The notes under the pieces: model-generated | The model's database searches: none | Told to the model about the DNA's origin: nothing | Seen by the model: the letters and a program-made list of their open reading frames with translations, nothing else | Made by a program: the position numbers and the translations under genes | Origin: an uncultured Acidobacteriota bacterium | Lineage (GTDB): Bacteria > Acidobacteriota > Terriglobia > Acidiferrales > UBA7541 | Assembly (NCBI GenBank): GCA_963831545.1 | Contig: CAWHQX010000011.1 | Coordinates: 143,206-207,205 of the forward strand | Length of the DNA stretch: 64,000 nucleotides | Direction: 5' to 3' | Part shown: positions 7,466 to 47,815 of the stretch, one piece after another | Position numbering within the stretch: position 1 is the stretch's first letter | Layout: each line of letters begins with the position of its first letter

Positions 7466-7485
7466 AACTGGGGAAATCCCTAGGG
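7466..7485. promoter_or_regulatory. Island palindrome box 1 (AACTGGGG-AAAT-CCCTAGGG)
   Basis: Member of the repeated dyad. TAAAAG on the minus strand at 7444-7439 faces the AI-2E gene. Confidence 0.75.
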
Positions 7486-7569
7486 AGCCGCTCCGAGATG
7501 TTTGGTTGCCAGCCTCCGATGTCAGTAAAACGCGTTCACCGAAAACTTGGGACGGGAAGCTGTTTGCCG

Positions 7570-7589
7570 CGCTAGGGAAATCCCTAGTT
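7570..7589. promoter_or_regulatory. Island palindrome box 2 (CGCTAGGG-AAAT-CCCTAGTT)
   Basis: TAGACT at 7611-7616 faces the SYLF/YSC84 gene. Confidence 0.8.
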
Positions 7590-12140: not shown

Positions 12141-13430
12141 TCAGGCGGCGGCAGCTCGCCTTCTGGGTGCGCATTCACGCTCGTTGCGAAATCGGAATAA
12201 ATGTCGAAACGGGACAAAGTTGGCGACGAACATATACTCTGTGAGTCGCAAGCTCCCGTCCAAACGTCTAATCTGACATTCACCTTGCTTCTCTGCTCGG
12301 CTTATGAAAGGCAAACCATTTCCCTCGAGGGTCCGACTTTGACCCAAAAGAAAGGCATCAATGGTGAAGTGCCTGATGTTTGTCTCCGAAACTCCGAACA
12401 AATGCAAGGCTCTCTGATTTGCGGCAACAAATCGGCGGTCTGCGTTCGTCAAAACGATTGCGTCGACCGAGCTGGCCATTAACTCTTGCAAGTCACTCTC
12501 CCTCGCGCGACGTGCTTCCTGTAGCTTCCTGGTTTCCTCCCTGGCATTCTTCCAACGTCCTGTGAGCGTGTTGAGTGTCCGCCGCAGATGTACCGTCATA
12601 TGCTGCAAAGTGACGAAGAGTTGCGACCCGAATTTGCTGATTTTGTGACTCGTGACAGCGATCGCATCAAGGGAGCCTGCGAATACCTTCCGCAGGTCAC
12701 TTGCGCGATAGGATTCCTGCAGTCTCCGAGTTTTCTCCGGGAGAGTCTTCCCCCATTCAGCGAGCCCGTTCAGTGCCCGCCGAACACGCGCGGACACTTG
12801 CTCCAAAGCGGCAACGAGTTGCGGCCTGAATTTGGTAATTTTGTGAGTTGTCACAGCAATTGCATCGAGTGAGCCTGCGAATATCTTCCGCAAGTCGCTT
12901 GTGCGATATGATTCCTGGAGTCTTCGAGTTTTCTCGGGGACAGTCTTCCCCCATTCACCGAGCCTGTTCAGTGCCCGCCGAACATGCGCGGGCACTTGCT
13001 CCAAAGCGGCAACGAGTTGCGGCCTGAATTTGGTAATTTTTTGAGTTGTCACAGCAATTGCATCAAGTGAGCCTGTGAATATCTTCCGCAAGTCGCTTGT
13101 GCGATATGATTCCTGTAGTCTTCGAGTTTTCTCGGGGACAGTCTTCCCCCATTCACCGAGCCTGTTCAGTGCCCGCCGAACATGCGCGGGCACGTGCTCC
13201 AAAGCGGCAACGAGTTGCGGCCTGAATTTGGTAATTTTTTGAGTTGTCACAGCAATTGCATCAAGTGAGCCTGTGAATATCTTCCGCAAGTCGCTTGTGC
13301 GATATGATTCCTGGAGTCTTCGAGTTTTCTCGGGGACAGTCTTCCCCCATTCAGCGAGCCCTTTCAGTGCCCGCCGGACATTTACCGTCACTTGTTCGAA
13401 GAGTTGCGAACTGAATTTGGTGATTTTCAT
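12141..13430 (-). CDS. PAS-domain protein with an N-terminal array of 66-aa tandem repeats and no output domain
   Basis: C-terminus SDLQELMASSVDAIVLTNADRRFVAANQRALHLFG...GECQIRRLDGS is PAS-like; it is preceded by 4 repeats plus a diverged fifth. Confidence 0.8.
   Translation of the reverse strand: MKITKFSSQLFEQVTVNVRRALKGLAEWGKTVPEKTRRLQESYRTSDLRKIFTGSLDAIAVTTQKITKFRPQLVAALEHVPAHVRRALNRLGEWGKTVPEKTRRLQESYRTSDLRKIFTGSLDAIAVTTQKITKFRPQLVAALEQVPAHVRRALNRLGEWGKTVPEKTRRLQESYRTSDLRKIFAGSLDAIAVTTHKITKFRPQLVAALEQVSARVRRALNGLAEWGKTLPEKTRRLQESYRASDLRKVFAGSLDAIAVTSHKISKFGSQLFVTLQHMTVHLRRTLNTLTGRWKNAREETRKLQEARRARESDLQELMASSVDAIVLTNADRRFVAANQRALHLFGVSETNIRHFTIDAFLLGQSRTLEGNGLPFISRAEKQGECQIRRLDGSLRLTEYMFVANFVPFRHLFRFRNERECAPRRRAAAA
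12460..13427. repeat. 198-bp in-frame tandem repeat, about 5 units, no spacers
   Basis: The segment G(T/C)GCGATA(T/G)GATTCC recurs at 12703, 12901, 13099 and 13297, an exact 198-bp period. Confidence 0.95.
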
Positions 13431-13531
13431 GGCACAGCCTCGGCAAAACTCGACCTAAATCTCAGAAGTTCAGCATTCAATTCTTCTCCAGAGCAAGCAT
13501 GTTCCGCTCTCACTTGTTAAGGGCGCGAGTC

Positions 13532-14021
13532 TTAGCTGCCAGCCAGCCACTTGTTCAGGAGAACCTTAACCTCAACGCGTCGGTTTCCTGTGCGTCCGGC
13601 AGCAGACTCGTTGGAGGCTACGGGAGCCACTTCTCCCATAGCGCCAAGCGCCACGATGTGCCGAACCGGAACGTTGCAGTTCTGGAGCAAATATGCAATT
13701 ACGTTTTGCGCGCGCTCCATGCTCAGTTTCTGGTTCATTGCCGCGTCGCCGCTGGAATCGGCATAGCCCTTCACTCGAATGATATAGCCCTAAACGTCGA
13801 CGGCATCGTGGGCCAACTTTTTCAGGCTTCCTGATCCGTTGGGGAAATCTTGGGGCTGCCGCTAGCAAAGTGGACAACCAATTTGTACGATCGTATCGCC
13901 GGTGCGGCGGTGATCAGCCCCTTGACGTTTGTCTCGTCATCACATGCGCCTAAGCGACCATTAATGCCACAAAACAGGCGGTCCACAGGCCTACAAGGAT
14001 TCTCATTCGCTTGCTTTGCAT
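13532..14021 (-). pseudogene. Degraded OmpA-family protein (internal deletion, stops, frameshifts)
   Basis: RBS plus MQSKRMRILVGLW signal peptide interrupted by TAG; LKKLAHDAVDV*GYIIRVKGYADSSG...LSMERAQNV...GRTGNRRVEVKV is an OmpA C-terminal domain. Confidence 0.75.
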
Positions 14022-14193
14022 AAAGCCGTTCCCTCCCTTTAATCTCGGATCAGGACAGAAACTAGACCTGCATGGTCTACCAGGTATTTCCGCGCGTTGG
14101 GCAAGAACAACAATTCAGAAGAGAACGTGGACCAGCAGGCCACGCGCAACCCATCGAACAGCATCATTTATAAATACCGGCGGGAAGTAGCTC

Positions 14194-14213
14194 TACTAGG
14201 GGAATCCCTAGTT
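14194..14213. promoter_or_regulatory. Island palindrome box 3 (TACTAGGG-GAAT-CCCTAGTT)
   Basis: TATAAA on the minus strand at 14172-14167 faces the OmpA pseudogene and PAS-repeat gene. Confidence 0.8.
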
Positions 14214-14395: not shown

Positions 14396-14415
14396 GACTA
14401 GGGATTTCCCTAGGT
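14396..14415. promoter_or_regulatory. Island palindrome box 4 (GACTAGGG-ATTT-CCCTAGGT)
   Basis: TATCAT at 14438-14443, upstream of response regulator 1. Confidence 0.8.
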
Positions 14416-14485: not shown

Positions 14486-15175
14486 ATGGGGGATGTGTCC
14501 GCGAAGTATTTGCGTCCGCACGTACTGGTTGCGGATGACCATGCAATGTTTGCTGAAGCGTTGCGCGTTTATTTGGGAAAGACTTATACGGTTGTCGGGG
14601 TGGTGCTCGACGGTCGTGCGATGGTAGAGGCAGCTGTTCGGCTCAAGCCTGACTTGATTATTGTGGATGTCGGGATGCCGCTGCTGAACGGCTTGGATGC
14701 GGCCCGAAGAGTTCGAGTGCAAGTTCCAAGCGTCAGATTCATCTTCTTGACCATGCAGGATGATCCAAATCTTGCCGCGGCTGCTCTTGAACTAGGGACA
14801 ATTGCTTTTGTCCTCAAACATTCAGCTGGACCAGAACTGCTGAAGGCCATTGAACAGGTGCTAAGCGGCCGGCCCTACTTGACTCCCAAAGTGCGGTCCG
14901 TGGATTGGGTCCAAACCAAAGCTAGGGCCAGTCATTTCTCAAAGGAAATGACTCCGCGACAAACAGATGTCGTTCAAATGCTGGCCGAGGGACGGCCCAT
15001 GAAGGAGATCGCTGGGCTTCTGGAGTTGAGCGAAAAGACTGTGGAATTCCACAAACACCACATCATGGACGTTTTCAACCTCAAAAGTAATGCTGATGTG
15101 GTTTTGTTTGCTTTGAAGCGCGGCCTCATCTCCATGAATATTGAGCCCGAGCATCGCGCGCGCACCAGAGGATAA
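14486..15175 (+). CDS. NarL/FixJ-family response regulator (REC + LuxR HTH), copy 1
   Basis: VLVADDH, IIVDVGMP, FVLK; HTH TPRQTDVVQMLAEGRPMKEIAGLLELSEKTVEFHKHHIM. Confidence 0.95.
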   Translation: MGDVSAKYLRPHVLVADDHAMFAEALRVYLGKTYTVVGVVLDGRAMVEAAVRLKPDLIIVDVGMPLLNGLDAARRVRVQVPSVRFIFLTMQDDPNLAAAALELGTIAFVLKHSAGPELLKAIEQVLSGRPYLTPKVRSVDWVQTKARASHFSKEMTPRQTDVVQMLAEGRPMKEIAGLLELSEKTVEFHKHHIMDVFNLKSNADVVLFALKRGLISMNIEPEHRARTRG

Positions 15176-15523
15176 TGAATACCCGGTCTCAACTTTAAGG
15201 CTCAATCGTCCGATTCCCGGTAGAGCATCGCGCATTCCCAGACTGACGTTAGCGAGAGTCAGAACGCAAGCTTTAACGCCAGTAGAATGACACGGGGAGA
15301 CTCATCGGAGTCCAGCGATGACGGCGACCAGGAGAACGGATACCCACTCGTTCCACTTACACTAGGAACTTATCCTCTTTAGACTCCGCGAGATGTTAAC
15401 TTAGGCTGAAAGTTCTTGCCAGTGCTATATTCTTGGTCACCGTACCGCTCGTCGGATGCATATACCCCTGAGCGATGACGTTCTTCAGGTGGCGCCATTT
15501 GAGAATCGCCCTGGAGGTTTCTT

Positions 15524-17395
15524 GTGACGGCTCAAGTCGAGCACAGCTTGGCGGGTGAACCTAGCCGCCCCGGTTGGCAGCATTCTGGCTATGGCCAGAG
15601 CGGGAGATCAGGAGCGGTAAGGTTCGCCCTGCTTCTGCTCCTCGTCGCTTTTCTGTTTCCGCAATCGATCGTGGCGCAACGAACGAAGTCTGTCCGGCGA
15701 GTCCTCATTTTCAATGATTTTGGTTCCATTTCGTCGCCCGGGATCGCGATTCTAGATCAGGCCATCGCGGCTGGCCTAGCGAGTTCTCCATACCAGATCG
15801 AACTCTACAACGAGAGTCTTGAGGCAACCTTGTTTCCTGATGAGCCTTCCCAGCACAGCTTCCGTGAATGGTTCATTCGCAAATACGCAGACCGCAAACC
15901 GGATGTAATCATTACCGTCGGACCTGCGTCTCTGAAGTTCATGGTCGAGGCGCATCAGACGTCATTTCCAAATATTCCAATCGTCTTTTGCGGCAGTACG
16001 AAGGAAATGCTGGACCAGCTGAAGCCAGACTCTTACTTTACCGGTGTTTGGGGAGTGGCACAGCCAGAAAAGACATTGATCGCGGCGTTGCACTTGCAAC
16101 CCGACACCAAGCACGTGGTTGTCGTGGGTGGTACTGGGGCGTTTGACCGGCGCCTCGAGGCCATCACCAAGGAAAGTTTGCGCAAGTACGAGTCGCAGTT
16201 CGAGTTCACATACCTCACGGACCTTACGATGCCTGCGCTCCTTGAACGACTAAGGCGGTTGCCGAGCGAGACGATTGTCTATCACACGTCCCTTATGGAG
16301 GACGCCGCGGGGACACACTTTATTGACGCAACCCAGGCCGCTCCTATGGTAGCAAGTGCCGCGAATGCACCTGTCTTTGCAATGGATGACGTCGATGTCG
16401 GTAATGGAACGGTGGGGGGCGACGTGGTGAGTTGGGCAGCGGGCGGTAAAATAGCTGCTGGGATGGTGTTGAGGATTCTCGACGGCGCGAAGCCGCAGGA
16501 AATTCCCATCGTCGGGAACGACAACGTCTATCTGTTCGATTGGCGAGCTCTGCGTCGGTGGGGACTCAAGGAAAGTGCCCTTCCACCCGGAAGCGTCGTG
16601 ATTTTCCGCGAATACTCCGTATGGGAACGCACCAAATGGATTTGGATCAGTGGGCTGCTGATGATCCTCAGTCTAGCCCTCCTTGCCGTCTATCTTCAGT
16701 TCAGTCGAAGACAACTCAAGCAGGCGAGAGAGTTTCAGTTGCAGCTAAGCGGCCTTTTGATCAACGCACAGGAAATGGAACGGAGACGATTGGCGTCGGA
16801 GCTCCATGATGATTTCAGCCAGCGCGTGGCCCTGCTCGCATTGGGATTGGAAAATGCCTCGGAGGCGCTACCTGATTCTTCAGAAGCTACCAAGCGACAG
16901 CTGCACGAGCTTTTTGATTCAGCTAGCGAGCTTGGTGCCGATCTACACACCGTATCCCATCGTTTGCATCCCTCCGTCCTTGAGAGCCTGGGACTTGCCC
17001 CAGGGGTAGACGCTTTATGTAAGGAATTCAGTGCCCGGCAGGACATTCGGGTTGATTTTTCTTCCGAGAATATTCCTCATGTCGTGCCTCCCAACGTAGC
17101 TCTGTGTTTATTCCGTATTGTCCAGGAGGGCCTTCAGAATTTAAGGAAGCATAGTGGAGCTTCGCAGGCCCAGGTAAGCTTGCGTAAGGACGGGGACAGA
17201 TTGCGTCTCTCCGTATGTGATAAAGGTAAAGGTTTCGATACGAAGGAGGTGAGAAATAAAGTGGGCCTGGGAATACCAAGCATGGGAGAACGTGTACGAC
17301 TGCTTGGTGGGCAATTCGAGATTCAATCGGAACCCGGGAAAGGGACCAAAATCGAGGTGTGTATGCCGCTTCCAACAAACGGGATTATCAGCTGA
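15524..17395 (+). CDS. Sensor histidine kinase (periplasmic substrate-binding-protein-like domain, 1 TM, HisKA_3, HATPase_c), copy 1
   Basis: ERRRLASELHDDFSQ H-box, QEGLQNLRKH N-box, DKGKGFD and GLGIPSM G-boxes. Confidence 0.93.
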   Translation: MTAQVEHSLAGEPSRPGWQHSGYGQSGRSGAVRFALLLLLVAFLFPQSIVAQRTKSVRRVLIFNDFGSISSPGIAILDQAIAAGLASSPYQIELYNESLEATLFPDEPSQHSFREWFIRKYADRKPDVIITVGPASLKFMVEAHQTSFPNIPIVFCGSTKEMLDQLKPDSYFTGVWGVAQPEKTLIAALHLQPDTKHVVVVGGTGAFDRRLEAITKESLRKYESQFEFTYLTDLTMPALLERLRRLPSETIVYHTSLMEDAAGTHFIDATQAAPMVASAANAPVFAMDDVDVGNGTVGGDVVSWAAGGKIAAGMVLRILDGAKPQEIPIVGNDNVYLFDWRALRRWGLKESALPPGSVVIFREYSVWERTKWIWISGLLMILSLALLAVYLQFSRRQLKQAREFQLQLSGLLINAQEMERRRLASELHDDFSQRVALLALGLENASEALPDSSEATKRQLHELFDSASELGADLHTVSHRLHPSVLESLGLAPGVDALCKEFSARQDIRVDFSSENIPHVVPPNVALCLFRIVQEGLQNLRKHSGASQAQVSLRKDGDRLRLSVCDKGKGFDTKEVRNKVGLGIPSMGERVRLLGGQFEIQSEPGKGTKIEVCMPLPTNGIIS

Positions 17396-17454
17396 TTTGA
17401 CGCGAATTGACTTTTAACTACGGCTAGAAGCGCCTGCTAACACGAGAACGGCCC

Positions 17455-17474
17455 GGTTAGGGTTTTCCCTAGTT
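17455..17474. promoter_or_regulatory. Island palindrome box 5 (GGTTAGGG-TTTT-CCCTAGTT)
   Basis: TAGAAT at 17496-17501, upstream of the lipoprotein-DASS operon. Confidence 0.8.
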
Positions 17475-17614
17475 GAGCGCACGTCAGATCGAACCTAGAA
17501 TTTGTGTGAACCAAACAGGCTAATGGCCTTGAACACTGAGGTCCAGCCAGTCAGGGTCGTCGCGTTTTCCACCGGACACACGTCGGGGCCACGGTCTGAT
17601 TCTAAGGAGATGCG

Positions 17615-18187
17615 GTGGTGCTTTCTCGGGAAGGCTCGTTGGTCTCGCTCGGGCGACGATTGTTAGTGCTCGCTCTGCTGCTGCCGACCGGATGCAGTCA
17701 GCCGACTATTCCATCCTCTGAGATTTCTACGCCAAGCGAGTGGCACGCATTCGAAGGCACTTGGACCGCCTCAGGTACTCGGCAGACGATTAAGCTGGAG
17801 ACAGACCACCGCGCGTCCACATTCGATTTGACCGGGTCGCTGCTACTAACAGGAGATCGTGGGTTGGGCGTAGGGTTCCGGGCGAGGGCCATGGGTTTCT
17901 CCGACACTCTCGCCGGAATGCAGGGCCGCTGTGTGTGGACTGATGAGCGCGGCGATAAGGTATACAGCGAATTGAACGGTGAGTGGGTGGGAACCGGAAG
18001 ACGCGTCGTCGGCACTTTTCTGGGAGGAACCGGGCGATTCGCCGGCATCACCGGCGAGTATTCCTTTGAGTGGGAGTACGTCGTTGTGTCCGAGGACGGC
18101 GGGGTGAGCGGCAGGTCCGTCAACCTTAAGGGCCGCTCTCGGTTTGGTTCAACGCCTCCCGCGATTACCGGAGAACAATCCAAATGA
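17615..18187 (+). CDS. Hypothetical beta-rich lipoprotein
   Basis: Lipobox-like LLLPTGC; its stop overlaps the DASS start (ATGA coupling). Confidence 0.7.
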   Translation: MVLSREGSLVSLGRRLLVLALLLPTGCSQPTIPSSEISTPSEWHAFEGTWTASGTRQTIKLETDHRASTFDLTGSLLLTGDRGLGVGFRARAMGFSDTLAGMQGRCVWTDERGDKVYSELNGEWVGTGRRVVGTFLGGTGRFAGITGEYSFEWEYVVVSEDGGVSGRSVNLKGRSRFGSTPPAITGEQSK

Positions 18188-19599
18188 GCACAGCCAAGAC
18201 CTCGTTTCGCCAGCAGTTGATGCGAGCCATTCCGTTGGCTCTGGCGCTCGGCATCTGGTACTGGCCAATACCAGCAGGGTTGACGCGAGAGGCCTGGCAT
18301 CTGTTTGCGATCTTTGCGGCGGCGATCGTCGCCGTCATTTTGAATTCATTTCCCCTTTTGACGGCCTCACTACTGGCGGTGTCAGCGGCGGTGCTCACTC
18401 GCACGGTTGACCCGGCTAAGGCTTTCGCTGGCTTTGCCAATCAGAGTGTGCTCCTGGTGGTTGTCGCATTTCTCGTCGCGAACGCGGTCGTGAAATCGGG
18501 GCTCGGACGACGCATCAGCCTCTTTGTGGTGGGCGCCTTCGGGCGATCCACGCTAGGATTGGGCTACAGCATTTTTTTTACCGATGCGATGATCGCACCT
18601 GCATTTCCGAGCAATACGGCGCGCGGTGGCGTGCTCTATCCGATTATTCTTTCTTTGGCACAAAGTTCCGGCTCCAAGCCAGACGACGAAGGTAACCGGC
18701 GGATGGGTGGCTACTTGATGTTCTGCGGAATGGCGAGCCTTAGCGTCTCGTCAGCCCTGTGGCTGACCGCAACTTCGGGCAATCCCATCGCGGTCTCGTT
18801 GGCGGAACCGTATGGCGTGAAGATCAACTTCGGCTCGTGGCTTGTCGCATCGTCGATTCCGATATTGACGATGATCGCGTTACTTCCGCTCGTCCTCTAC
18901 AAATTGTTTCCGCCTGGCGTGACAGACACCCCTGATGCGCCAAAGGCCGCGCGCGAAGCGCTAAGCACGATGGGATCCCTTACGCGAGACGAATGGATTG
19001 TTACGGTGGCGTTCGCATTCATGGTGACTGGATGGGTGATGGCAGGCGCACTGAACTTGAGTCTCGCTGCTGTGGCGTTCGCTGGCCTGGGTGCGCTCCT
19101 AGCTACAAATGTCCTTACGCTCGAGGACATCAACTTACAGGGAGGTACGCTGGTCACGTTTATTTGGCTGGCGGTGTTGTTTGCACTGAGCGGGCAGTTG
19201 AACGAGCTAGGCTTCATGGGCTACGTTGGAGCCCGGCTGACGTCGCTACTTGGAGGGATCGCCTGGCCCATTACTTACGTCGTACTCGTGGTGCTTTACG
19301 TGTTGATGCACTACATGTTCGTCAGTCAGACAGCACAAGTATTGGCGCTGTTCGACGTCTTTCTGGGCGTCGGGGTCAAGACCGGTGTTCCGGCCCCTTT
19401 AATGGCTTTTGCGCTGCTGTTTGCGAGCAGTTATTTCGCGACGATTACGCCGCAGGGAGGCAGCCAGAACGTCATCTTCGTTGGGAGTGGTTATCTGACG
19501 CAAGGTGAACTCTACCGGCTTGGCCTGCTGACTACGATTTTCTGTTTGCTGGTGTTCCTGGTGGTCGGAACGCCGTGGTTGCTCCTGGTCGCGCGGTAA
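18184..19599 (+). CDS. DASS-family anion permease (CitT/TtdT-like)
   Basis: PAFPSNTARGGVLYPI, LWLTATSGNP, GYLTQGE; multi-TM. Confidence 0.9.
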   Translation: MSTAKTSFRQQLMRAIPLALALGIWYWPIPAGLTREAWHLFAIFAAAIVAVILNSFPLLTASLLAVSAAVLTRTVDPAKAFAGFANQSVLLVVVAFLVANAVVKSGLGRRISLFVVGAFGRSTLGLGYSIFFTDAMIAPAFPSNTARGGVLYPIILSLAQSSGSKPDDEGNRRMGGYLMFCGMASLSVSSALWLTATSGNPIAVSLAEPYGVKINFGSWLVASSIPILTMIALLPLVLYKLFPPGVTDTPDAPKAAREALSTMGSLTRDEWIVTVAFAFMVTGWVMAGALNLSLAAVAFAGLGALLATNVLTLEDINLQGGTLVTFIWLAVLFALSGQLNELGFMGYVGARLTSLLGGIAWPITYVVLVVLYVLMHYMFVSQTAQVLALFDVFLGVGVKTGVPAPLMAFALLFASSYFATITPQGGSQNVIFVGSGYLTQGELYRLGLLTTIFCLLVFLVVGTPWLLLVAR

Positions 19600-19625
19600 C
19601 GGTGGCGCGAATAATTTGTGAATCT

Positions 19626-21344
19626 TTAATCTCTCACTTGGGCACTCTGGTTCGCAGACAACTCCCCATACTTCGCGACTGCCAACTCCAGGCTGAATTG
19701 CATCCTCTCGCGTCCGAGGTCTTGACCTAGAGACGATCTTTGGACCATTTGCAGTACTCCGGGGTTGAGTCCCACCAGCCATGTGGACACATCATTTTCG
19801 CGTTGGCGTTTCTCGGCTTCAATCAGTGCTTTCAATGCCGTGTATTCGAGATCCGGCACAGCGCTGAGATCGAGTGCAACTACCTTGGGTTGAGCTTCGT
19901 TCACCAGAACTCGTATTTTCTGCCCGATATGCTCTGCGTTGGCGAAGAATACGCGTCCCTCAAGCCGCAGCAGCAACAACCCGGAAAAAGTTTCGTCCTC
20001 TGGATGGTCCTCGGTTCGTGGACGAAACACATTGGTCCCTGGCTTGCGTCCCAAAACGTAAACCGGAGGGTCGGCTACCTGAGATGCCAGCGCTACGAGT
20101 GACAACACAATGGCGACGATGATGCCTTTCAGGGTTCCCAACAGCACCACCCCTGCTAAGGCGGTTAAGGCCCACGTGAATTCTGTTCGCCGGATTTGCA
20201 GGATCGCACGGAACTCCGCCGGTCGCATCAATCCGATGGAGTAAACAATGACTACAGCTGCGAGTGTGGCTTGCGGCATCAGCGCCAGAAGCGGTGCCAG
20301 CAGAAGAATTGTAGCTAACGCCACCGCGGCTGTGACTATCTCCGCAAGCTGAGTGCGCGCTCCTGCAAGTCGATTCACGGCGGTTTGCGAAGTGCCTCCA
20401 CCTGCCGGCATTGCGCCCAGGAATGCACCTCCCGCATTGGCAATCCCCGTTGCCAGCAACTCTCGATTTGCGCGTATGGGTGGCTCATCACTTTTGGCAA
20501 ACGCCCGGCCGGAAGCAATGGTCTCGGTGAAACTCATCAGCGCTATGCCTAGAGCCCCAGGCCAGAGATCCTGCGCAAGAGAGAATTCTGGGAAGGTAAT
20601 CGAGGGTAGACCCCTGGGAATGTGGCCGACCAACTCCACTCCGTGAATCTGAAGATCCAGTAGCCGTGCACCGATGATCCCAGCAGCGACAGCAATCAGC
20701 GGAGCCGGAGCCCGCGGGAGGAATCGTTCGATCCCCACCAACAACAGGACCATCGCTACACCGACAGCCAAAGTCGTTAACGACGTTTCAGGAATACTAC
20801 GAACGATTGCCATGATGTTGTGGAAGAAGGAACCTCGAGGGAAATGAATGCCAAGAATCTTCGGGAGTTGATCTAGCACGATGACAATGCCGATACCCGC
20901 CTTAAAGCCGACTAATACCGGTTCGGAAATGAAATTAGCGATAAAGCCAAGCCGCAACAATGAAGCAAGAATGAGGAAGCCGCCAACCATCAGCGTTAGC
21001 ATCACGGAAGCCCTGAGCAAGGCTGACGGATCGGCGCCAGGCACGACCTCGCCTAGTTCAGTTGCGGTTAAAATTGCGATGGTAGTGGTGGTGCTAACGC
21101 TCAGGGGACGAGAGCTGCCTATCAGGGCGTAAATCGCCATGGGGACTAAGGCGGTGTAGAGGCCCACTTGCACCGGCAGTCCGGCGATCGTGGCATAGGC
21201 CATGGCTTTGGGAATGACCACGGCGGCCGTCGTGATGCCCGCGATTATGTCTGGCCGCAGCCAATCCTTCTGATAGCTGAACAACCAATCTGCGATGGGC
21301 AGGTAGCCGAGCCTTTGACGGTCCGTGGACAAGTTCTCCCCCAT
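19626..21344 (-). CDS. SulP-family inorganic anion transporter with STAS domain
   Basis: DIIAGITTAAVVIPKAMAYATIAGLP..GLY signature; STAS segment LEGRVFFANA...LDLSAVPDLEYTAL. Confidence 0.93.
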   Translation of the reverse strand: MGENLSTDRQRLGYLPIADWLFSYQKDWLRPDIIAGITTAAVVIPKAMAYATIAGLPVQVGLYTALVPMAIYALIGSSRPLSVSTTTTIAILTATELGEVVPGADPSALLRASVMLTLMVGGFLILASLLRLGFIANFISEPVLVGFKAGIGIVIVLDQLPKILGIHFPRGSFFHNIMAIVRSIPETSLTTLAVGVAMVLLLVGIERFLPRAPAPLIAVAAGIIGARLLDLQIHGVELVGHIPRGLPSITFPEFSLAQDLWPGALGIALMSFTETIASGRAFAKSDEPPIRANRELLATGIANAGGAFLGAMPAGGGTSQTAVNRLAGARTQLAEIVTAAVALATILLLAPLLALMPQATLAAVVIVYSIGLMRPAEFRAILQIRRTEFTWALTALAGVVLLGTLKGIIVAIVLSLVALASQVADPPVYVLGRKPGTNVFRPRTEDHPEDETFSGLLLLRLEGRVFFANAEHIGQKIRVLVNEAQPKVVALDLSAVPDLEYTALKALIEAEKRQRENDVSTWLVGLNPGVLQMVQRSSLGQDLGRERMQFSLELAVAKYGELSANQSAQVRD

Positions 21345-21388
21345 ACAATGCCCGTTGCTGAATTTAGCAAAGCGAACCTGCTGGCTTC

Positions 21389-21408
21389 ACCTAGGGATTT
21401 GCCTAGTG
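21389..21408. promoter_or_regulatory. Island palindrome box 6 (ACCTAGGG-ATTT-GCCTAGTG)
   Basis: Lies between divergent sulP-like and kinase 2 genes; TAAATT on the minus strand at 21366-21361. Confidence 0.75.
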
Positions 21409-21656
21409 GCAGCTTAGACCTCCGCGAGGCAAAAGCTGAATGGAACGAGGCTATGCTATGCAGGTCCTGGGACTCATAGAGAGAATTTCGGAGCTTTTGT
21501 TTGGGGTCGGAACGGTCGGTTCGTAAGCCGTGGGCTAGCAGACTCGGCGATTCCTTTCCAAATCCATTTCTTGCAGCTTATTTCCTTGAGCGCAGTGGCT
21601 TTTGCGCATAGACTTACGATATAAATCCAGCCTAGGACTGAGTTCGAACTTCGGAG

Positions 21657-23537
21657 GTGCCGGTTAGCCTGCGCTTGCGCCGGTATCGGGAGATGGTCCT
21701 GGAAAATGTTTCGCTCTCCGGGCAAGGCAATCAGCTTCCGAGAGCATTGCTTGCGTCTGGCTGGGCTTCGCTGCTGACTCTCGTCGTCTTATTCGGGAGC
21801 GGCCAAACCTCGGCTCAAGCGCCTCTGAAAAGAAATGTGCTGATTCTCAGCGACGTGGGTTTGTCGCATTCCCTCACTGCGGAATTTACCCGGGACATTG
21901 TCGCAGAGGTGCGGGATACGCCAGCGCGACATGTCGAGTTTTACTCTGAGAGTCTCGATCTGCAGGCCTTTCCAGGCGGACCTTCGCGAGATGATTCCGA
22001 AGACTGGCTTGCCAAGAAATATGGCGAACATAAATTGGACGCAGTCGTAGCGATTGGTCCGGGCACAATTGATTTTCTCTCCAATGATACCGAGGACCTG
22101 TTCCAAAATGCGCCCATTGTGATTTGCGGGAGTTCCGCGGATCAAGCCAGTAATCCAAAACTCGATGCCAGATTCACAGGAACGTGGGTCCAGCTTAAAC
22201 CAGAAAGAACACTTGAACTGGCTCTGCAGCTTTTCCCAGATACACGTCACGTGTTTGTGGTGGGAGGTAGTTCCGACTTTGACAAAGCAGTGATGTCGTT
22301 GACAAAAAAGGCGCTGGGTTCGGTCAAGCCGACGCCGGAAATTGTCTATCTGACCGGCATGGAAATGAATGGTTTACTGGAACGGCTGCGGAATCTGCCG
22401 GACCACTCCATCGAGTTCTATACTTCATTCTTTCAGGATTCGGCCGGGAATAGATTTCTCAATGCAACTAAAGCCCTTCCGATGATCGCGGCAGCCTCCA
22501 ACGGCCCGGATTTCGGCATGTCTGATGGGTATCTGGGAAATGGGATTGTTGGCGGATACGTTTTGCCCTTTGAAAAACAAGCGAGGATGACAGCCCAAAT
22601 TGTCGGGGAACTACTGGACGGGAAACAAGTCCAGGCAATTCCGATCAAGACTCTTTCCAGTGAGTACGAGTTCGACTGGCGTGAACTCAAGCATTGGCAT
22701 ATCACGGAAGCCAGCCTTCCACTGGGAAGCGTGATCATGTTTCGAGAGCGTGGTCTCTGGGAGCGCACCAAGTGGGCTTGGATCACATCGCTTCTGATCA
22801 TCGCGGCTCTCTCCTCCATTACCTTTTACCTGCAAAGCAGCCGAAAGCAGCTAACGCTGGCCAAGGAAAAGCAGATGCAGCTCAGCGGTCTGCTGATCAA
22901 CGCAGAGGAGAAGGAACGAAGCCGGGTGGCATCCGAACTTCACGATGACTTTAGCCAGAGGCTGGCGTTACTGGCCCTGGGTTTGGAGAGTGTTGACGAA
23001 GCCACGCCCGCTTCTTTAGAGCACGTTCATAAGCAATTGCAGGAGCTTGCCAGGTCCACAAGCGAGCTTGGTTCTGATCTGCACACCCTATCGCATCGGT
23101 TGCATTCGTCCACGCTCGAGAGCCTGGGTCTTGTTCCGGCTGTCGACGCTTTATGCAGAGAATTCACTTGCAAGCAAGGCATCAGGGTCGACTTTTTATG
23201 CGATGAAATTCCGCGATCAATCAATCCCGACGCAGCCCTTTGTATCTTCCGCATCGTTCAAGAATCACTGCGGAACGTGAAGAAGTACAGTGGTGTGGAG
23301 GAGGCGGAGGTGGACCTGCGAATGACGGGCGACAGATTAGAGATTCGCGTGAGGGACAAAGGACGCGGATTCAGTTTGTCGGAACTCGGCCAGAATGGGG
23401 GTCTCGGTATCCGGAGCATGGAACAACGCGCGCGGCTGTTGGGTGGAAATTTTGAGATTCACTCTGAGCTCGGAAAGGGTACGAGAGTCGAGGCCTGGGT
23501 GCTGCTCAAACCCGTAGTACGGCATACGACGGCCTAG
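21657..23537 (+). CDS. Sensor histidine kinase (SBP-like sensor, HisKA_3, HATPase_c), copy 2; start may be downstream
   Basis: ERSRVASELHDDFSQ; collinear paralog of 15524-17395. Confidence 0.93.
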   Translation: MPVSLRLRRYREMVLENVSLSGQGNQLPRALLASGWASLLTLVVLFGSGQTSAQAPLKRNVLILSDVGLSHSLTAEFTRDIVAEVRDTPARHVEFYSESLDLQAFPGGPSRDDSEDWLAKKYGEHKLDAVVAIGPGTIDFLSNDTEDLFQNAPIVICGSSADQASNPKLDARFTGTWVQLKPERTLELALQLFPDTRHVFVVGGSSDFDKAVMSLTKKALGSVKPTPEIVYLTGMEMNGLLERLRNLPDHSIEFYTSFFQDSAGNRFLNATKALPMIAAASNGPDFGMSDGYLGNGIVGGYVLPFEKQARMTAQIVGELLDGKQVQAIPIKTLSSEYEFDWRELKHWHITEASLPLGSVIMFRERGLWERTKWAWITSLLIIAALSSITFYLQSSRKQLTLAKEKQMQLSGLLINAEEKERSRVASELHDDFSQRLALLALGLESVDEATPASLEHVHKQLQELARSTSELGSDLHTLSHRLHSSTLESLGLVPAVDALCREFTCKQGIRVDFLCDEIPRSINPDAALCIFRIVQESLRNVKKYSGVEEAEVDLRMTGDRLEIRVRDKGRGFSLSELGQNGGLGIRSMEQRARLLGGNFEIHSELGKGTRVEAWVLLKPVVRHTTA

Positions 23538-23715
23538 CGAGGTGCTCAACGGGTGTGGTGTCCTCGCCGAGGCGGATTGTAACGGCGTTGCCGAGTGTGA
23601 CGGGCGTCATAGCATACTGCCCCGCATAGTACTTGATTCATGTACTCAGCCCACTTTGTGGACGTGAATTCGTGTAGTATGGCGGTCCCGGCCCGCCCAG
23701 AAAGAGGCCAAGATC

Positions 23716-24414
23716 ATGGAAAACGTTTTAATAGACAGATCTCGACCAAAGTTCCTGATCGCCGATGACCATGCGATGTTCGCGGAGGCTTTGAGAGTTT
23801 TTCTGGAGCGAACATACCCAGTTGTCGGGTTGGTGTCCGACGGCCGCGCCTTGATTGAAGCAGCCTCACGACTTAAGCCTGAAATCATTATCGTCGATGT
23901 GGCCATGCCCATCCTGAATGGCCTAGATGCGGCGCGCAGAATTAAGGAGCAGTCTGCCAAGATCAAGTTCATCTTCCTGACGATGCAAGAGGATCCAAAT
24001 CTGGCTGCAGCGGCGCTGGAACTGGGCCCGATCGGGTTCGTGCTGAAGCACACGCCTGGGTCGGAACTATTGAAGGCGATTGATCATGTACTGCATGGAA
24101 AGCCCTATGTGACTGCCAAGCTGAGGGCGGAGGATTGGGTCACAACGAAGGCGCGGGCGCGACAGTTCGCTACGGAATTGACGGCACGGCAGCGCGATAT
24201 CGTGCAGTTGTTTGCCGAAGGGCGGCCCATGAAGGAAATCGCTGGATTGCTGAACCTAAGCGAAAAGACGGTGGAATTCCACAAGCATCACATTATGGAA
24301 GCGTTCAACGTTAAGAATAATGCCGATCTGATATTGTTCGCTTTGAAACATGGACTTATCTCGATCGATCCCGAGCCCTCTGTGCCGGCACGCGCGGGCC
24401 ACAACGGGCGATAA
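23716..24414 (+). CDS. NarL/FixJ-family response regulator, copy 2
   Basis: IADDH, IIVDVAMP; HTH AEGRPMKEIAGLLNLSEKTVEFHKHHIM. Confidence 0.95.
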   Translation: MENVLIDRSRPKFLIADDHAMFAEALRVFLERTYPVVGLVSDGRALIEAASRLKPEIIIVDVAMPILNGLDAARRIKEQSAKIKFIFLTMQEDPNLAAAALELGPIGFVLKHTPGSELLKAIDHVLHGKPYVTAKLRAEDWVTTKARARQFATELTARQRDIVQLFAEGRPMKEIAGLLNLSEKTVEFHKHHIMEAFNVKNNADLILFALKHGLISIDPEPSVPARAGHNGR

Positions 24415-24440: not shown

Positions 24441-24460
24441 GACTAGGGATTTCCCCAGTG
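24441..24460. promoter_or_regulatory. Island palindrome box 7 (GACTAGGG-ATTT-CCCCAGTG)
   Basis: TAACAT at 24482-24487, upstream of the receiver-only protein. Confidence 0.75.
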
Positions 24461-24569
24461 GCGAAGTCCGTTCCCACCACCTAACATCCGATTCTGGTTT
24501 GGTACCATCGCATCGTGGGACGCTGACGTGGCGGACCCACCGTGCGCGATTGTTGGATGGAGGCGAACA

Positions 24570-24965
24570 TTGATTCGCCCACGCGTGCTCCTGGCCGATG
24601 ACCATCTCGAATTCCTGGAAGCGGAAATCGCTTTGCTGCGACCTCATTTTGAACTGGTGGGCACGGTGAGCGATGGAGTTTCGCTTATATCTGAGGCCGC
24701 GCGGCTCAGTCCGGACGTTGTGGTGGTTGACGTCACCATGCCGTTTATGAACGGCATCGACGCGGTCCGCAAACTCGTCGAGTCCGGCTGCACTACCAAG
24801 TTTGTATTTCTGACGATTAATACTGGCGCGGAGTTCGTTAAAGCATGCCAGCAAGCAGGAGCTCGGGGCTATGTCTGGAAAAGCCGAATGAACGCCCATC
24901 TGATTCCAGCGATTTACGCGGCCCTCAAAGGCCTTCCGTATATTTCTCCGTTAACTTCCTCGTGA
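24570..24965 (+). CDS. Single-domain (receiver-only) response regulator
   Basis: VLLADDH, VVVDVTMP, GYVWK; ends without an HTH. GGAGG precedes TTG 24570. Confidence 0.85.
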   Translation: MIRPRVLLADDHLEFLEAEIALLRPHFELVGTVSDGVSLISEAARLSPDVVVVDVTMPFMNGIDAVRKLVESGCTTKFVFLTINTGAEFVKACQQAGARGYVWKSRMNAHLIPAIYAALKGLPYISPLTSS

Positions 24966-25064: not shown

Positions 25065-25084
25065 GGTTAGGGATTTCCCTAGTT
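25065..25084. promoter_or_regulatory. Island palindrome box 8 (GGTTAGGG-ATTT-CCCTAGTT)
   Basis: TAAAAG at 25107-25112, upstream of the sortase. Confidence 0.8.
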
Positions 25085-25163: not shown

Positions 25164-25910
25164 TTGCGGAAGGCTTCCGAAATGGTGCGGGGCAACATAA
25201 TGAACGCGCTCAGCGGCTTTGAACGGCTCCTGCTGTTCCTGGGATTGCTGCTGCTCTCGGTGTACGCCGTCGGCCGCATTTATAGTTCGCTCTACTCTCA
25301 TCTCGCCGTGCACGAATTCTGGGGTTCGCATGGCTCCTCGAGCACAGTCAACCCCGCCGGCGCATCCCAGCAGAATCACGGAATTCCGGATTTTCACTTG
25401 TGGTCGGTAAAACGGATTGAGGCCTACCACATGAGCTTAGTCGCAAGCGTCCCGCCTCCCCTAGGCGTTCTAAGAATTCCTTCGGTTGATCTGGAAGTGC
25501 CGGTGCTCGAAGGAACCGACGACCTGATGCTGAATCGCGGGGTGGGACACATCGATGGCACCAGCGCCCTCGATGAGGGAGGTAACGTTGGTATTGCCGG
25601 ACACCGCGATGGATTTTTTCGAGGGCTTAAGGACGTTCATGTTGGCGACACGATGGATGTGTATAGCGAAAAGGGAAATTTGCGTTATGTTGTAGATGAG
25701 ATTGTTGTTGTTCCGCCAGAGGACGTTTCTGTCCTGGCGCCGCGATCCAAACCCACTCTAACTCTTGTAACCTGCTATCCCTTTTATTTTGTGGGCAGTG
25801 CTCCGCTGCGTTACATCGTTCACGCCTCGATCACAGATGTGAACAGTCTCTCGGCTTCTGATCAGCCACACACTCTGGTTAAGGAGGGAGGAGGCCGAGT
25901 CAAAAAATGA
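25164..25910 (+). CDS. Class D sortase (alternative start ATG 25200)
   Basis: N-terminal TM; catalytic-triad motifs GIAGHRD, LTLVTCYPF, PLRYIV. Confidence 0.93.
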   Translation: MRKASEMVRGNIMNALSGFERLLLFLGLLLLSVYAVGRIYSSLYSHLAVHEFWGSHGSSSTVNPAGASQQNHGIPDFHLWSVKRIEAYHMSLVASVPPPLGVLRIPSVDLEVPVLEGTDDLMLNRGVGHIDGTSALDEGGNVGIAGHRDGFFRGLKDVHVGDTMDVYSEKGNLRYVVDEIVVVPPEDVSVLAPRSKPTLTLVTCYPFYFVGSAPLRYIVHASITDVNSLSASDQPHTLVKEGGGRVKK

Positions 25911-26814: not shown

Positions 26815-26935
26815 ACAGTTGCGCGGCAGAGGAGAGCCCTAGAAGACTAAGCAGTGAGGTTCAGGCGGTCGCCGTACTCATTTGCTGGTTGGCCAGTGGA
26901 ATCCAGCGGAGGAAGTCACGAAGGGAAGTTCAACT

Positions 26936-28288: not shown

Positions 28289-28295
28289 ACAAGTC

Positions 28296-29840: not shown

Positions 29841-29860
29841 TACTAGGGTTTTCCCTAGTT
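29841..29860. promoter_or_regulatory. Island palindrome box 9 (TACTAGGG-TTTT-CCCTAGTT)
   Basis: Upstream of the RND operon. Rightward hexamer is weak (CAGAGT at 29882); leftward TAGGAT at 29818-29813. Confidence 0.8.
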
Positions 29861-30077
29861 GTTGCCATTTCCTGGATTAGACAGAGTGTGCGTGACAGAC
29901 CATTTGTTGCCGGCGCATTGATCGAGCAGTGCGAATAATCGGGGACTCCGATCGCTCGACGCGTATCTCCAGTCGGGCGCACCTGCGCCGGAAAACACCG
30001 ATTCTCGAACCGAGAGGCCGTTCCGCGTTTTGGCGCGGTTGGTCTACGACGGCAGTCGAAGTCCGGAGGCCAAACGA

Positions 30078-38826: not shown

Positions 38827-38846
38827 TACTGGGAAAACCCCTAGTT
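38827..38846. promoter_or_regulatory. Island palindrome box 10 (TACTGGGA-AAAC-CCCTAGTT)
   Basis: TAGGAT on the minus strand at 38804-38799 faces pfkA. Confidence 0.7.
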
Positions 38847-38878
38847 CACTTTGAAGTCGATTTGAAAAATGACGCAGT

Positions 38879-38898
38879 GATCAGGGATTTCCCTAGTT
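38879..38898. promoter_or_regulatory. Island palindrome box 11 (GATCAGGG-ATTT-CCCTAGTT)
   Basis: 52 bp from box 10, upstream of the BASS gene; no good -10 at the fixed spacing. Confidence 0.7.
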
Positions 38899-43084: not shown

Positions 43085-43104
43085 AACTAGGGATTTCCCT
43101 AGTT
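43085..43104. promoter_or_regulatory. Island palindrome box 12, perfect arms (AACTAGGG-ATTT-CCCTAGTT)
   Basis: Lies between divergent porin and decarboxylase genes. TACCCT (minus, 43063-43058) and TAAATG (plus, 43126-43131) are both 31.5 bp from the centre. Confidence 0.85.
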
Positions 43105-47774: not shown

Positions 47775-47815
47775 AACGTATAAAACGACCCGAGGCGTAT
47801 CAAGGGAGGTTGACG

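Follow-up and report, generated by a model that had tools for sequence, protein, structure and literature searches.

Two paralogous kinase–regulator pairs of an uncultured soil bacterium of the Acidobacteriota (GTDB: Terriglobia; Acidiferrales; UBA7541; assembly GCA_963831545.1, genome of 5.0 Mb) appear to share a single type of DNA operator. Judging from sequence, we hold with good, if not full, confidence the explanation as a whole, namely that the clade of response regulators comprising RR1 and RR2 reads a 16-base palindrome (the box), that the bound regulator would act as a class-II-type activator, and that two histidine kinases, HK1 and HK2, would feed this shared output. The window analyzed here is the whole stretch of 64,000 nt at positions 143,206 to 207,205 of the forward strand of contig CAWHQX010000011.1, and coordinates are given within it. 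In the proposed mechanism, the helix SEKTVEFHKHHIM of RR1 and RR2 would recognize CTAGGG-WWWW-CCCTAG, probably as a phosphorylated dimer, in a self-contained regulon of 12 operators within 36 kb.

RR1 (14486..15175, + strand; Pfam Response_reg 1.3e-21, GerE 3.8e-14) and RR2 (23716..24414, +; Response_reg 7.3e-23, GerE 7e-16) are NarL/FixJ-type response regulators, with GerE scores above the Pfam cut-off in both and a C-terminal four-helix HTH of the GerE type. As in the receivers of other such regulators, the phospho-acceptor residues (D17, D61, T89, and K111) are present, and they are invariant across the clade (17 sequences). HK1 (15524..17395, +) is a membrane kinase consisting of a periplasmic PF04392 sensor resembling solute-binding proteins (SBP), a TM helix, HisKA_3, and HATPase_c; its paralogue HK2 (21657..23537, +) comprises ABC_sub_bind (PF04392), HisKA_3, and HATPase_c. 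The E-values for the two kinases are 1.8e-9 and 3e-9 for HisKA_3, and 7.4e-13 and 9.7e-11 for HATPase_c, and both carry ELHDD, so that the H-box histidine of the DHp (dimerization/His) domain and the catalytic domain place them among the HisKA_3 kinases of the NarX/DesK type. The first-pass annotation described the two pairs as collinear paralogs. Their paralogy is clear (49% identity across 580 residues for the kinases, 71% across 217 for the regulators) and the kinases are collinear, but the gene order differs, being RR1→HK1 in one pair and HK2→RR2 in the other. Identity is distributed unevenly along the kinases (41% in the sensor, 70% in DHp, and 54% in the catalytic domain), bearing out the divergence of the periplasmic sensors claimed earlier, and is more even in the regulators (72% in the receiver and 76% in GerE). 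Exactly one difference separates RR1 from RR2 over the 28-residue HTH stretch AEGRPMKEIAGLL(E/N)LSEKTVEFHKHHIM, again as first described, and the recognition helix LSEKTVEFHKHHIM is the same in both.

The box, CTAGGG-N4-CCCTAG with an A/T-rich center, is matched 12 times in the window, where 0.9 matches would be expected by chance. The genome of 5.0 Mb has no good copies other than these 12, which fall inside one 36-kb stretch of the window. Genome-wide, 5 of 5 exact occurrences of CTAGGGN4CCCTAG, as well as 10 of the 11 with at most one mismatch, are found in the window. A matrix built exclusively from the boxes of other genomes recovers 12 sites of at least 19 bits in this genome, all at 7466-43085, with the next-best sites scoring 16.3 and 15.7 bits, and a matrix derived from 65 boxes finds 14 sites, 12 of them in the island.

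The distribution of the box follows that of the regulator clade, in line with the proposal of the first-pass annotation that these regulators read it. Among 61 relatives, close clade copies (at least 64% identity) are present in four, and it is precisely these that are rich in boxes (11, 15, 28, and 24); counts elsewhere are 0–3, except in one outlier, where an unrelated repeat accounts for nine. Sampling 300 genomes across the class yielded two further carriers, which belong to another family. In the first of them, the sole two matches to CTAGGRWWWWYCCTAG in the genome (one mismatch allowed) flank a bare HK-RR-REC unit containing its HK-RR operon, and in the second, two of the three are no more than 5 kb from REC-HK-RR; none were found in control genomes. 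With a matrix made from the 12 boxes of the window, 275 boxes were located in 74 clade-regulator loci of other MAGs (12.6 kb each), at least one box being present in 69 of these 74 independent loci, whereas the 65-box matrix found no sites in 16 loci of paralogues outside the clade. Since the peptide patterns used to find these loci included the helix, its conservation there cannot count as independent evidence; however, 14 helix-covering clade copies from four genomes, only 60–73% identical overall, keep S(E/K)KTVEFHK(H/R/Y)(H/Q/R)I(M/R/K). Paralogues from this same genome, at 42–45% identity, carry the helix TKRTVAGHKYAVM and lack boxes.

Co-occurrence at the level of genomes cannot separate the regulator from other genes of the island, and this distinction is drawn from the minimal HK-RR-REC loci and from the larger island ORFs that were scanned, in which Pfam finds no other DNA-binding domain. 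It would be conceivable that the box merely travels with the regulators and is read by some unrecognized DNA-binding protein of the island, or by an alternative sigma factor, since genomes of the genus sample have either the entire island or none of it, and several of its ORFs have no Pfam domain. This seems highly improbable given the bare unit in the genome of the other family described above. Across 80 loci, moreover, boxes are most frequent directly on either side of the regulator gene, including the position right past its stop codon, and at satellite loci the regulator and the box persist amid different neighbors. A palindrome used in both directions, next to a −10 element resembling that of sigma-70 promoters, also fits a dimer rather than a sigma factor. 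That the RR1/RR2 clade comprises the readers of the box is thus strongly supported by sequence.

The surroundings of the box follow a common plan, in which a −35-like TTGnnn hexamer comes directly after the box and a −10-like TAnnnT follows 23 nt after it. In 130 flanks, TAnnnT occurs 21 and 13 times at offsets 23 and 24, compared to about 0.7 times at other offsets, and in an independent set of loci 89 and 51 times, compared to about 4. In the latter set, a −10-like TA is found at offsets 22–24 in 243 of 273 boxes and a TTG adjoining the box in 181 of the 546 flanks. This signal is not due to redundant copies, as clustering of the 70 promoter flanks by sequence gives 59 groups. Assuming that transcription starts 7 nt after the −10 element, the center of the box would lie near −43.5, at the edge of the range of about −41.5 to −43.5 expected for a class-II-type site like that of DosR. 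The spacing ahead of RR1 orthologues does vary by genome (about 23, 34, and 42–45 nt), and some boxes of the window, namely 29843 on its + side, 38881, and 21391 toward HK2, are followed by poor −10 hexamers.

From this arrangement, in which the box precedes a weak −35 element of promoters of the sigma-70 type, we infer DNA binding and activation. A dimer situated beside the −35 element could also exclude RNA polymerase, making the box an operator for repression, yet we regard this as very unlikely, as the −10 and start regions are never covered by the box, which in over 240 promoters adjoins a weak −35 hexamer at a constant spacing, with single boxes serving divergent promoters. Ahead of RR1 and in the sulP–HK2 interval, the two box regions covered by a scan for consensus sigma-70 promoters, no strong ones were found, and the geometry is that of class-II activators such as DosR. 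At hspX of Mycobacterium tuberculosis, the box of DosR (DevR) is centered at −43.5 in a promoter whose −10 element is good and whose −35 element is suboptimal, and the NarL/GerE-type DosR dimer reads the G-rich palindrome GGGACT/TGTCCC through helix α9 (PMC13486717). The DosR kinases, DosS and DosT, are cytoplasmic haem-GAF proteins, unlike HK1 and HK2. The start of the recognition helix, SEKTV, is common to DosR and the regulators described here. The residues that follow it here are EFHKHHIM, the half-site is CTAGGG, and the start sites are predicted ones, in all of which the present system differs from that of DosR.

Two boxes lie upstream of RR1 and a third between sulP and HK2, where the earlier reading had placed them. 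The first, CTAGGGGAATCCCTAG (14196..14211), has a −10-like TATAAA on its minus-strand side and faces away from RR1, whereas CTAGGGATTTCCCTAG (14398..14413), followed by GTGGCG, 18 nt, and TATCAT, would provide the RR1 promoter, with the ATG 73 nt past the box. Box TTAGGGTTTTCCCTAG (17457..17472), followed by TTGAGC, 17 nt, and TAGAAT, is the putative promoter site of an operon on the + strand (17615..19599) encoding a 190-residue secreted or lipoprotein-like ORF (17615-18187) and a DASS (Na_sulph_symp) transporter (18184-19599). Box CTAGGGATTTGCCTAG (21391..21406) occupies the divergent region between HK2 and the gene of a SulP-family anion transporter with a STAS domain assigned by Pfam (19626..21344, −). 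It has a good −10 toward sulP (GTGAAG-17/18-TAAATT), but only CAAAAG toward HK2; sulP is its predicted target, and SulP genes are targets in 16 further loci as well.

The mechanism would place further genes under the control of boxes. The box at 25067..25082 lies ahead of a sortase operon (25164-25910 and the genes that follow), sortase being a target in 16 loci, and the downstream DUF3300/DUF2950 genes are probably driven as well. Two boxes, 7468 and 7572 (7468..7587), are located between the genes of an AI-2E-family transporter (6216-7301, −) and a Ysc84/SYLF protein (+, true start at about 7694), both predicted targets from families that recur as such in other loci. Box 29843..29858, with its weak −10 on the + side, precedes an RND efflux operon (MFP 30030-31283, RND 31286-34438, and OMF 34438-35865, then PPK2), whose MFP gene is a target in seven loci. 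Two weaker boxes, 38829 and 38881 (38829..38896), separate PFK (37284-38573, −) from a short SBF-family ORF (39084-39611, +). A perfect box (43087..43102, “box 12”), with TTGTTG-17-TAAATG on its + side, lies between a DcaP-like porin (41295-43034, −) and a decarboxylase operon consisting of OKR_DC_1 (43191-46034), an aminotransferase-fold protein (46041-47774), and an Asp-Al_Ex antiporter (47750-49513); three further genomes keep this promoter, and both the porin and the operon would be targets. The wider regulon contains amino-acid decarboxylases, Asp:Ala-type antiporters, glutaminase, and amidase.

The positive autoregulation suggested in the first-pass annotation is borne out in part. For RR1, box 14398 abuts the promoter and its −10 element TATCAT is found 43 nt before the ATG. 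In turn, the indications for HK2-RR2 are weak in this genome, because the better promoter at box 21391 faces sulP. In relatives, the box, sulP, HK2, and RR2 follow one another in the same direction, and sulP is inverted here.

A third gene was missing from the earlier picture of two pairs. A single-domain receiver without an output domain (24528..24965, +; Response_reg 6.8e-17; the start codon may instead be 24570 or 24585) lies behind RR2 and has a box of its own, CTAGGGATTTCCCCAG (24443..24458), located 29 nt past the RR2 stop and followed by TGGCGA-17-TAACAT. It is 37–41% identical to the receivers of RR1 and RR2, and no other kind of gene is driven by a box as often as a receiver-only gene directly following the regulator (63 loci). 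This protein is likely to be a phosphate sink or feedback element; once induced from its box, it would probably drain phosphate, resulting in negative feedback.

The boxes are not all alike, and RR1 and RR2 might not be interchangeable, in which case partition of the boxes, heterodimers, or competition with one poor activator would create a hierarchical or AND-like logic. The variants available for partition are the symmetric CTAGGG..CCCTAG as opposed to CCCCAG, TTAGGG, and GCCTAG. The ATTTGCCTAG variant of box 21391 recurs at three orthologous sites (before sulP in those cases in which the neighboring genes were inspected), among them the co-directional sulP→HK2→RR2 of relative G033 and a rearranged site in G036, and CCCCCAG recurs after the regulator at orthologous sites. 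Some genomes keep 6–7 clade regulators, and the GerE domains of RR1 and RR2 are just 76% identical outside the helix. However, their recognition helices are identical, and no box subclass tracks the helix variants in 80 loci, making such a division of labor unlikely.

The assignment of the sensors to the PF04392 type I periplasmic binding fold rests on sequence and fold for HK1 (36.2 bits, Pfam cut-off 25.9) and, for HK2, which at 20.0 bits is below the cut-off, on its 41% identity to HK1. The sensor profile matches 6HNI, 3LKV, and 3LFT (E 3.9e-9 to 1.9e-4), and the same structures are the top Foldseek matches (TM 0.63–0.68) of an AF2 model of the HK1 sensor (pLDDT 77). The structures 3LFT, 3LKV, and 6HNI (CD0873) represent stand-alone binding proteins of ABC transporters for Trp, Phe, and Tyr (PMC10443332), whereas in HK1 this fold is fused to the kinase through one TM helix. 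At 12–16% identity to these liganded structures, the ligand is not transferable. Anions or carboxylates, hinted at as ligands in the first-pass annotation, are not favored over amino acids, as the only solved relatives of the fold bind Trp, Tyr, or Phe and the regulon includes amino-acid decarboxylases and antiporters.

HK1 orthologues (72–74% identical) are found in two other genomes and those of HK2 (65–67%) in three; in one relative, HK1 is on a separate contig, unlinked to a clade regulator and with no box nearby. Within each sensor lineage orthologues are 65–81% identical, compared to about 41% between the lineages, and family-wide sensor identity ranges from 42 to 91% while the helix and the box are constant, in agreement with the earlier view of divergent sensors acting on one DNA output. 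Sequence and comparison show the genes, the box, its restriction to the island, its association with the clade, and its promoter geometry; we infer phosphotransfer partners, ligands, and integration logic. The anciently duplicated kinases, with diverged sensors and nearly identical DHp helices, would pass phosphate into a shared output, possibly in response to two different ligands combined by OR logic and with HK2-RR2 autoregulated. Helix α1 of DHp (ASELHDDFSQR[V/L]ALLALGLE) and α1 of the regulators (DDHAMFAEALRV[Y/F]L) are nearly identical between the pairs, which is compatible with cross-talk, though no proof of it. With no sign of insulation in these helices, the two kinases could also share a single ligand or stimulus, such as pH or one amino acid, and differ in affinity or dynamics, which would extend the range or provide redundancy as in NarX/NarQ. 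Both sensors belong to one fold family, and a shared class of ligand is compatible with 41% identity. The conservation within lineages as against that between them suggests separate constraints, though, and sensors diverge to 42% over a constant output; a common stimulus is a possibility that we find rather doubtful.

Escherichia coli NarX-NarL and NarQ-NarP combine two paralogous HisKA_3 kinases and two paralogous NarL-family regulators with overlapping DNA sites. Here, too, kinases and regulators are paralogous. RR1 and RR2 have an identical recognition helix, and a single type of box is used throughout the island; the two sensors may converge on shared operators, with DHp and receiver surfaces that would be similar enough for cross-talk. 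Nitrate and nitrite are sensed in the Nar system by periplasmic four-helix bundles, and the sites are heptamer pairs (7-2-7) across the chromosome; here, unlike in Nar, sensors of the SBP fold are accompanied by a 16-bp CTAGGG palindrome in one island and by a conserved receiver-only gene, which Nar lacks. E. coli EvgS-EvgA combines a NarL-family regulator with a kinase that has periplasmic solute-binding-type (Venus-flytrap) domains, and switches on island-like acid-resistance (decarboxylase/antiporter) and efflux-pump genes (PMC5573083). The present system resembles it in the kind of sensor, the regulator family, and the predicted targets. EvgS is a hybrid with a receiver, HPt, and tandem domains of the SBP_bac_3 type, whereas HK1 and HK2 are kinases of the orthodox HisKA_3 type, each having a single PF04392 domain. 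Hybrid kinases of the EvgS/BvgS type were considered for HK1 and HK2 and rejected, as Pfam finds no receiver, HPt, or SBP_bac_3 domain in them.

The type of switch is ordinary for bacteria, and its biology (a NarL-type activator, paralogous inputs, and autoregulation) is conventional, bringing no new principle; the operator and the regulon are newly defined, and what they offer is annotation and a basis for experiments. The operator motif, promoter architecture, and list of targets permit sequence-based prediction of targets in well over 70 loci of many MAGs, and an uncharacterized type of sensor, in which a solute-binding fold of the PF04392 family is joined to a HisKA_3 kinase, is given a testable pairing with its regulator. 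Acidobacteriota are abundant in soils and, to our knowledge, almost no regulatory circuits have been described for them. As a tentative reading, for which the odds are somewhat unfavorable, the system may represent a portable cassette of soil Acidobacteriota (SBP-sensor kinase, regulator, box, and receiver-only gene) in which the sensors are swapped while operator and helix stay constant, the inputs converging on one hub of pH homeostasis and envelope functions with the receiver as a phosphate sink. Its sensors would include at least two to four PF04392 lineages, as well as MASE1-PAS and soluble kinases, and its regulon a decarboxylase/antiporter module, glutaminase, amidase, and carbonic anhydrase, together with SulP, a K+ channel, porins, and efflux. 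If true, it would be a major uncharacterized stress circuit of a dominant soil phylum.

A repeat search of the intergenic regions yielded the box, a candidate operator: a palindrome of 16 bp, CTAGGG-N4-CCCTAG, whose spacer is A/T-rich. The window contains 12 copies when up to two mismatches are allowed, compared to 0.9 matches expected, and all of these sites are intergenic (7468, 7572, 14196, 14398, 17457, 21391, 24443, 25067, 29843, 38829, 38881, and 43087). All five exact boxes of the 5.0-Mb assembly, as well as 10 of the 11 with no more than one mismatch, lie inside the window. A weight matrix built exclusively from boxes of other genomes finds 12 sites of at least 19 bits, all at 7466–43085, with the runner-up sites elsewhere in the assembly scoring 16.3 and 15.7 bits, and a matrix made from all 65 boxes then known places 12 of its 14 sites in the whole genome within the same stretch. 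The location of the matrix and pattern matches thus indicates a regulon confined to one 36-kb island.

The first-pass annotation proposed that the box is read by two paralogous NarL/FixJ-type regulators, RR1 and RR2, and named boxes in regulator-free genomes as a refuting condition; checked in this way, the distribution of boxes among genomes with and without these regulators favors them as readers. With RR2 as the query against 61 related genomes, close copies (at least 64% identity) were found only in the genome of the window and in three others, the next paralogues reaching at most 52%. Boxes with at most one mismatch number 11, 15, 28, and 24 in exactly these four genomes, and 0–3 in the remaining ones, save for one with nine. 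The latter was considered as evidence against co-occurrence and rejected, since an unrelated repeat, CTAGGGGCTGTCCTAG, accounts for five of the nine matches, the remaining four being scattered and with one mismatch each. In G058, a genome from another family of the same class, CTAGGGGCTGTCCTAG is present on several contigs in pairs about 700 bp apart, resembling the terminal inverted repeats of a small mobile element.

A class-wide sample of 300 genomes added two clade-bearing genomes from a different family, and the control genomes had no box matches. In the first (regulator 61% identical), the tighter pattern CTAGGRWWWWYCCTAG has only two matches genome-wide, which flank the kinase–regulator operon, one located before the kinase and the other 51 nt past the regulator stop, fronting a receiver-only gene. 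In the second (69% identical, with an identical recognition helix), three clustered boxes lie between a REC-HK-RR operon and a porin–glutaminase pair. Independent loci came from scanning 185,579 species genomes, where 80 loci have regulators 67–92% identical to RR2; their sources are many metagenome-assembled genomes bearing the labels Candidatus Acidoferrales, Acidobacteriaceae, Sulfotelmatobacter, and Korobacteraceae. A matrix derived from the 12 window boxes alone detects 275 boxes in the 74 loci not used previously, with at least one box in 69 of them, whereas the matrix from 65 boxes gives no site in 16 loci around paralogues outside the clade. Across clade loci, box positions peak on either side of the regulator gene, directly past its stop and a short way before its start.

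All 14 helix-covering copies of the four genomes retain the recognition helix, S(E/K)KTVEFHK(H/R/Y)(H/Q/R)I(M/R/K), although their overall identity is only 60–73%. The more distant paralogous systems of the window's own genome have no boxes and carry the helix TKRTVAGHKYAVM. Two of these systems (C7:392278–396029 and C15:136774–140538) include kinases of ~1,030 residues, in which the same PF04392 sensor is followed by extra cytoplasmic sensory domains; a receiver-only gene comes after each regulator. Covariation of helix and box was also considered, as a distant regulator with the helix SEKTVMFHKYEIM has CTAGGA/TCCTAG half-sites, but was rejected because this variant also accompanies the standard helix. 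No other recognizable DNA-binding domain was found among the larger ORFs scanned in the island. Taken together, the genus-level, class-wide, independent-locus, and helix evidence, along with the lack of a rival DNA-binding protein, makes it highly probable, on sequence grounds, that the clade including RR1 and RR2 reads the box.

Both pairs are encoded on the forward strand. RR1 (14486–15175) and RR2 (23716–24414) consist of Response_reg and GerE domains, and the kinases HK1 (15524–17395) and HK2 (21657–23537) of PF04392 (ABC_sub_bind), HisKA_3, and HATPase_c, with the PF04392 score of HK2 under Pfam's cut-off. A 190-residue ORF with a DASS transporter (17615–19599, forward) and a SulP transporter (19626–21344, reverse) lie between the pairs. 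Their description as collinear paralogs with diverged sensors is borne out by the alignments, with 49% identity for the kinases and 71% for the regulators, and, by domain, 41% for the sensor, 70% for the dimerization/His domain (DHp), 54% for the catalytic domain, 72% for the receiver, and 76% for GerE. The helix-turn-helix stretches of RR1 and RR2 indeed differ in exactly one residue (E/N). Two features were overlooked at first: the gene order is regulator–kinase in RR1–HK1 and kinase–regulator in HK2–RR2, and a third, receiver-only gene (24528–24965) follows RR2. Helix α1 of DHp in the kinases and α1 of the regulators are almost identical between the pairs. Specificity residues are an established concept for HisKA kinases, and, read in this way, the near-identity of α1 gives no sign of insulation; cross-phosphorylation between the pairs is plausible on this basis. 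In each of the three other genomes that carry the island, both kinases have an orthologue: those of HK2 are 65–67% identical and the two of HK1 that were aligned directly 72–74%; the remaining HK1 orthologue was assigned solely from its 45% identity to HK2. The duplication thus predates these species, which have retained both copies.

The boxes are accompanied by a recurrent promoter layout. Of the 130 oriented flanks around 65 boxes, 21 and 13 have TAnnnT at offsets 23 and 24 past the box end, respectively, compared to ~0.7 elsewhere, and the first three bases beyond the box read TTG in 34 flanks, TAG in 21, and TGG in 14. These counts define the order box, TTGnnn, 17 nt, TAnnnT. Predicted promoters run in both directions from 13 boxes. 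The 70 promoter flanks of this set form 59 sequence clusters, so that the signal is not due to redundant copies. In an independent set of 273 boxes with 546 flanks, 191 flanks have TA at offset 23 (~17 elsewhere), and such a −10 lies on one or both sides of 243 boxes. The flanks give the box a direction within its context, and, with a start site assumed 7 nt past the −10, it would span −51 to −36, centered at −43.5. The predicted promoters share this center, a suboptimal −35, and a good −10 with DosR at hspX, where GGGACT/TGTCCC is read by helix α9 (PMC13486717). A phosphorylated regulator dimer on the box would then provide class-II-type activation. A scan for consensus sigma-70 promoters near RR1 and HK2 found none, which would fit activator-dependent promoters and is uninformative by itself.

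Promoter orientation assigns the window targets. Box 7468 faces an AI-2E transporter, box 7572 a Ysc84 protein, box 17457 the 190-residue ORF and DASS, box 25067 a sortase operon, and box 29843, with a weak −10, RND efflux and PPK2; the weaker boxes 38829 and 38881 face PFK and SBF, and box 43087 a porin and an operon of a decarboxylase, an aminotransferase-fold protein, and an Asp-Al_Ex antiporter. Box 14196 faces a leftward unit, its good −10 (TATAAA) pointing into ~770 bp with no convincing gene (13431–14211), upstream of a tandem-repeat PAS protein (12141–13430, reverse). Possible readings of this stretch are a long leader, an unannotated small gene, and a gene that has decayed; in a relative, a box directly drives a 188-residue PAS protein. 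Behind the two weakest boxes, the ORF of the SBF family (bile acid:Na+ symporters; 39084–39611, 175 residues) matches only the first part of the Pfam model and may be truncated or a pseudogene. At 26882–29339, the DUF3300 and DUF2950 ORFs overlap by ~390 nt when called from the first start codon, hence DUF2950 probably starts later.

Positive autoregulation, also proposed in the first-pass annotation, is well founded for RR1, where box 14398 is followed by a TATCAT −10 and by the ATG 73 nt past the box. Boxes upstream of RR1-like genes in three other genomes lie 23, 34, and ~42–45 nt from a TATCAT/TATGAT −10, spacings about one and two helical turns apart. For HK2–RR2 in this genome the case is weak. 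Two relatives have box, sulP, HK2, and RR2 in a single direction, whereas comparison of 19626–21406 with their loci (L022:4873–9652 and L026) reveals that sulP and its box are inverted here, uncoupling HK2–RR2 from the box-driven sulP promoter. The good promoter of box 21391 faces sulP on the minus side, and toward HK2, 266 nt away, there is only CAAAAG. The receiver-only gene has its own box, 24443, 29 nt past the RR2 stop (unit 24443–24965), and its phospho-acceptor residues are intact. No feature of the family is better conserved than this regulator–box–receiver arrangement, which is found again in 63 loci. CheY-type phosphate sinks are known, and by analogy the box-induced protein is probably a phosphate sink exerting negative feedback.

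An SBP-type kinase is present within 6 kb of the regulator in 52 of the 80 clade loci, usually directly upstream, with sensors 42–91% identical to those of HK1/HK2; other HisKA_3 kinases occur in eight. In satellite loci, clade regulators are paired with a MASE1-PAS kinase, a soluble kinase, or a REC-MEDS protein. Such varied partners beside one regulator clade indicate a variable input and a constant output, in keeping with the proposal that divergent sensors feed one DNA output. In genomes with 6–7 regulator copies (L030, G033:C1:25001–43000, and L029), the extra regulators adjoin REC-MEDS, soluble HisKA_3, and MASE1-PAS inputs, with boxes and a Ysc84 gene nearby, and one adjoins a second sortase and a Crp-type regulator.

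The HK1 sensor alone gave nothing meaningful in a sequence search against the PDB, matches requiring a family profile. A structural model (pLDDT 77, pTM 0.72) and that profile each matched only three solved PF04392 proteins, 3LKV, 3LFT, and 6HNI, 12–16% identical to the sensor, with Phe, Trp, and Tyr as their ligands (PMC10443332). As ligands of the sensor, amino acids are therefore no less likely than anions, and the hint at anions or carboxylates from the neighboring transporters is not favored over them.

A census of the first gene behind box promoters in ~100 loci lists receiver-only proteins as the commonest target (63 loci), followed by DUF3300 (21), SulP and sortase (16 each), Ysc84 (14 + 9), DcaP-like porin (12), OmpA (11), small K+ channel and AI-2E (8 each), RND fusion protein (7), DUF4136 and β-carbonic anhydrase (6 each), and a large decarboxylase (5). 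A glutaminase, an aspartase-like lyase, and a formamidase-type amidase are present in the two distant genomes. From this gene content, the regulon looks like one of pH and ion homeostasis and envelope functions. In L041 (G202:C1:294001–314000), from a different family, a DcaP-like porin and glutaminase pair is connected to the module, with an Asp-Al_Ex antiporter and an aspartase-like lyase nearby, suggesting amino-acid-linked pH homeostasis.

By architecture, with two HisKA_3 kinases and two NarL-type regulators on probably shared sites, the system resembles NarXL/NarQP, and by its predicted promoter mechanism, DosR. Its physiology is possibly like that of EvgS/EvgA, in which a flytrap-type sensor and a NarL-type regulator control acid resistance and efflux (PMC5573083), although HK1 and HK2, unlike the EvgS-type hybrid kinase, have no receiver or HPt domain by Pfam. 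The literature searched contained no characterized kinase of the PF04392/COG2984 type and no characterized acidobacterial NarL acid regulon. What is new for this understudied phylum is the operator, along with the promoter layout and the regulon; the underlying principle is a known one.
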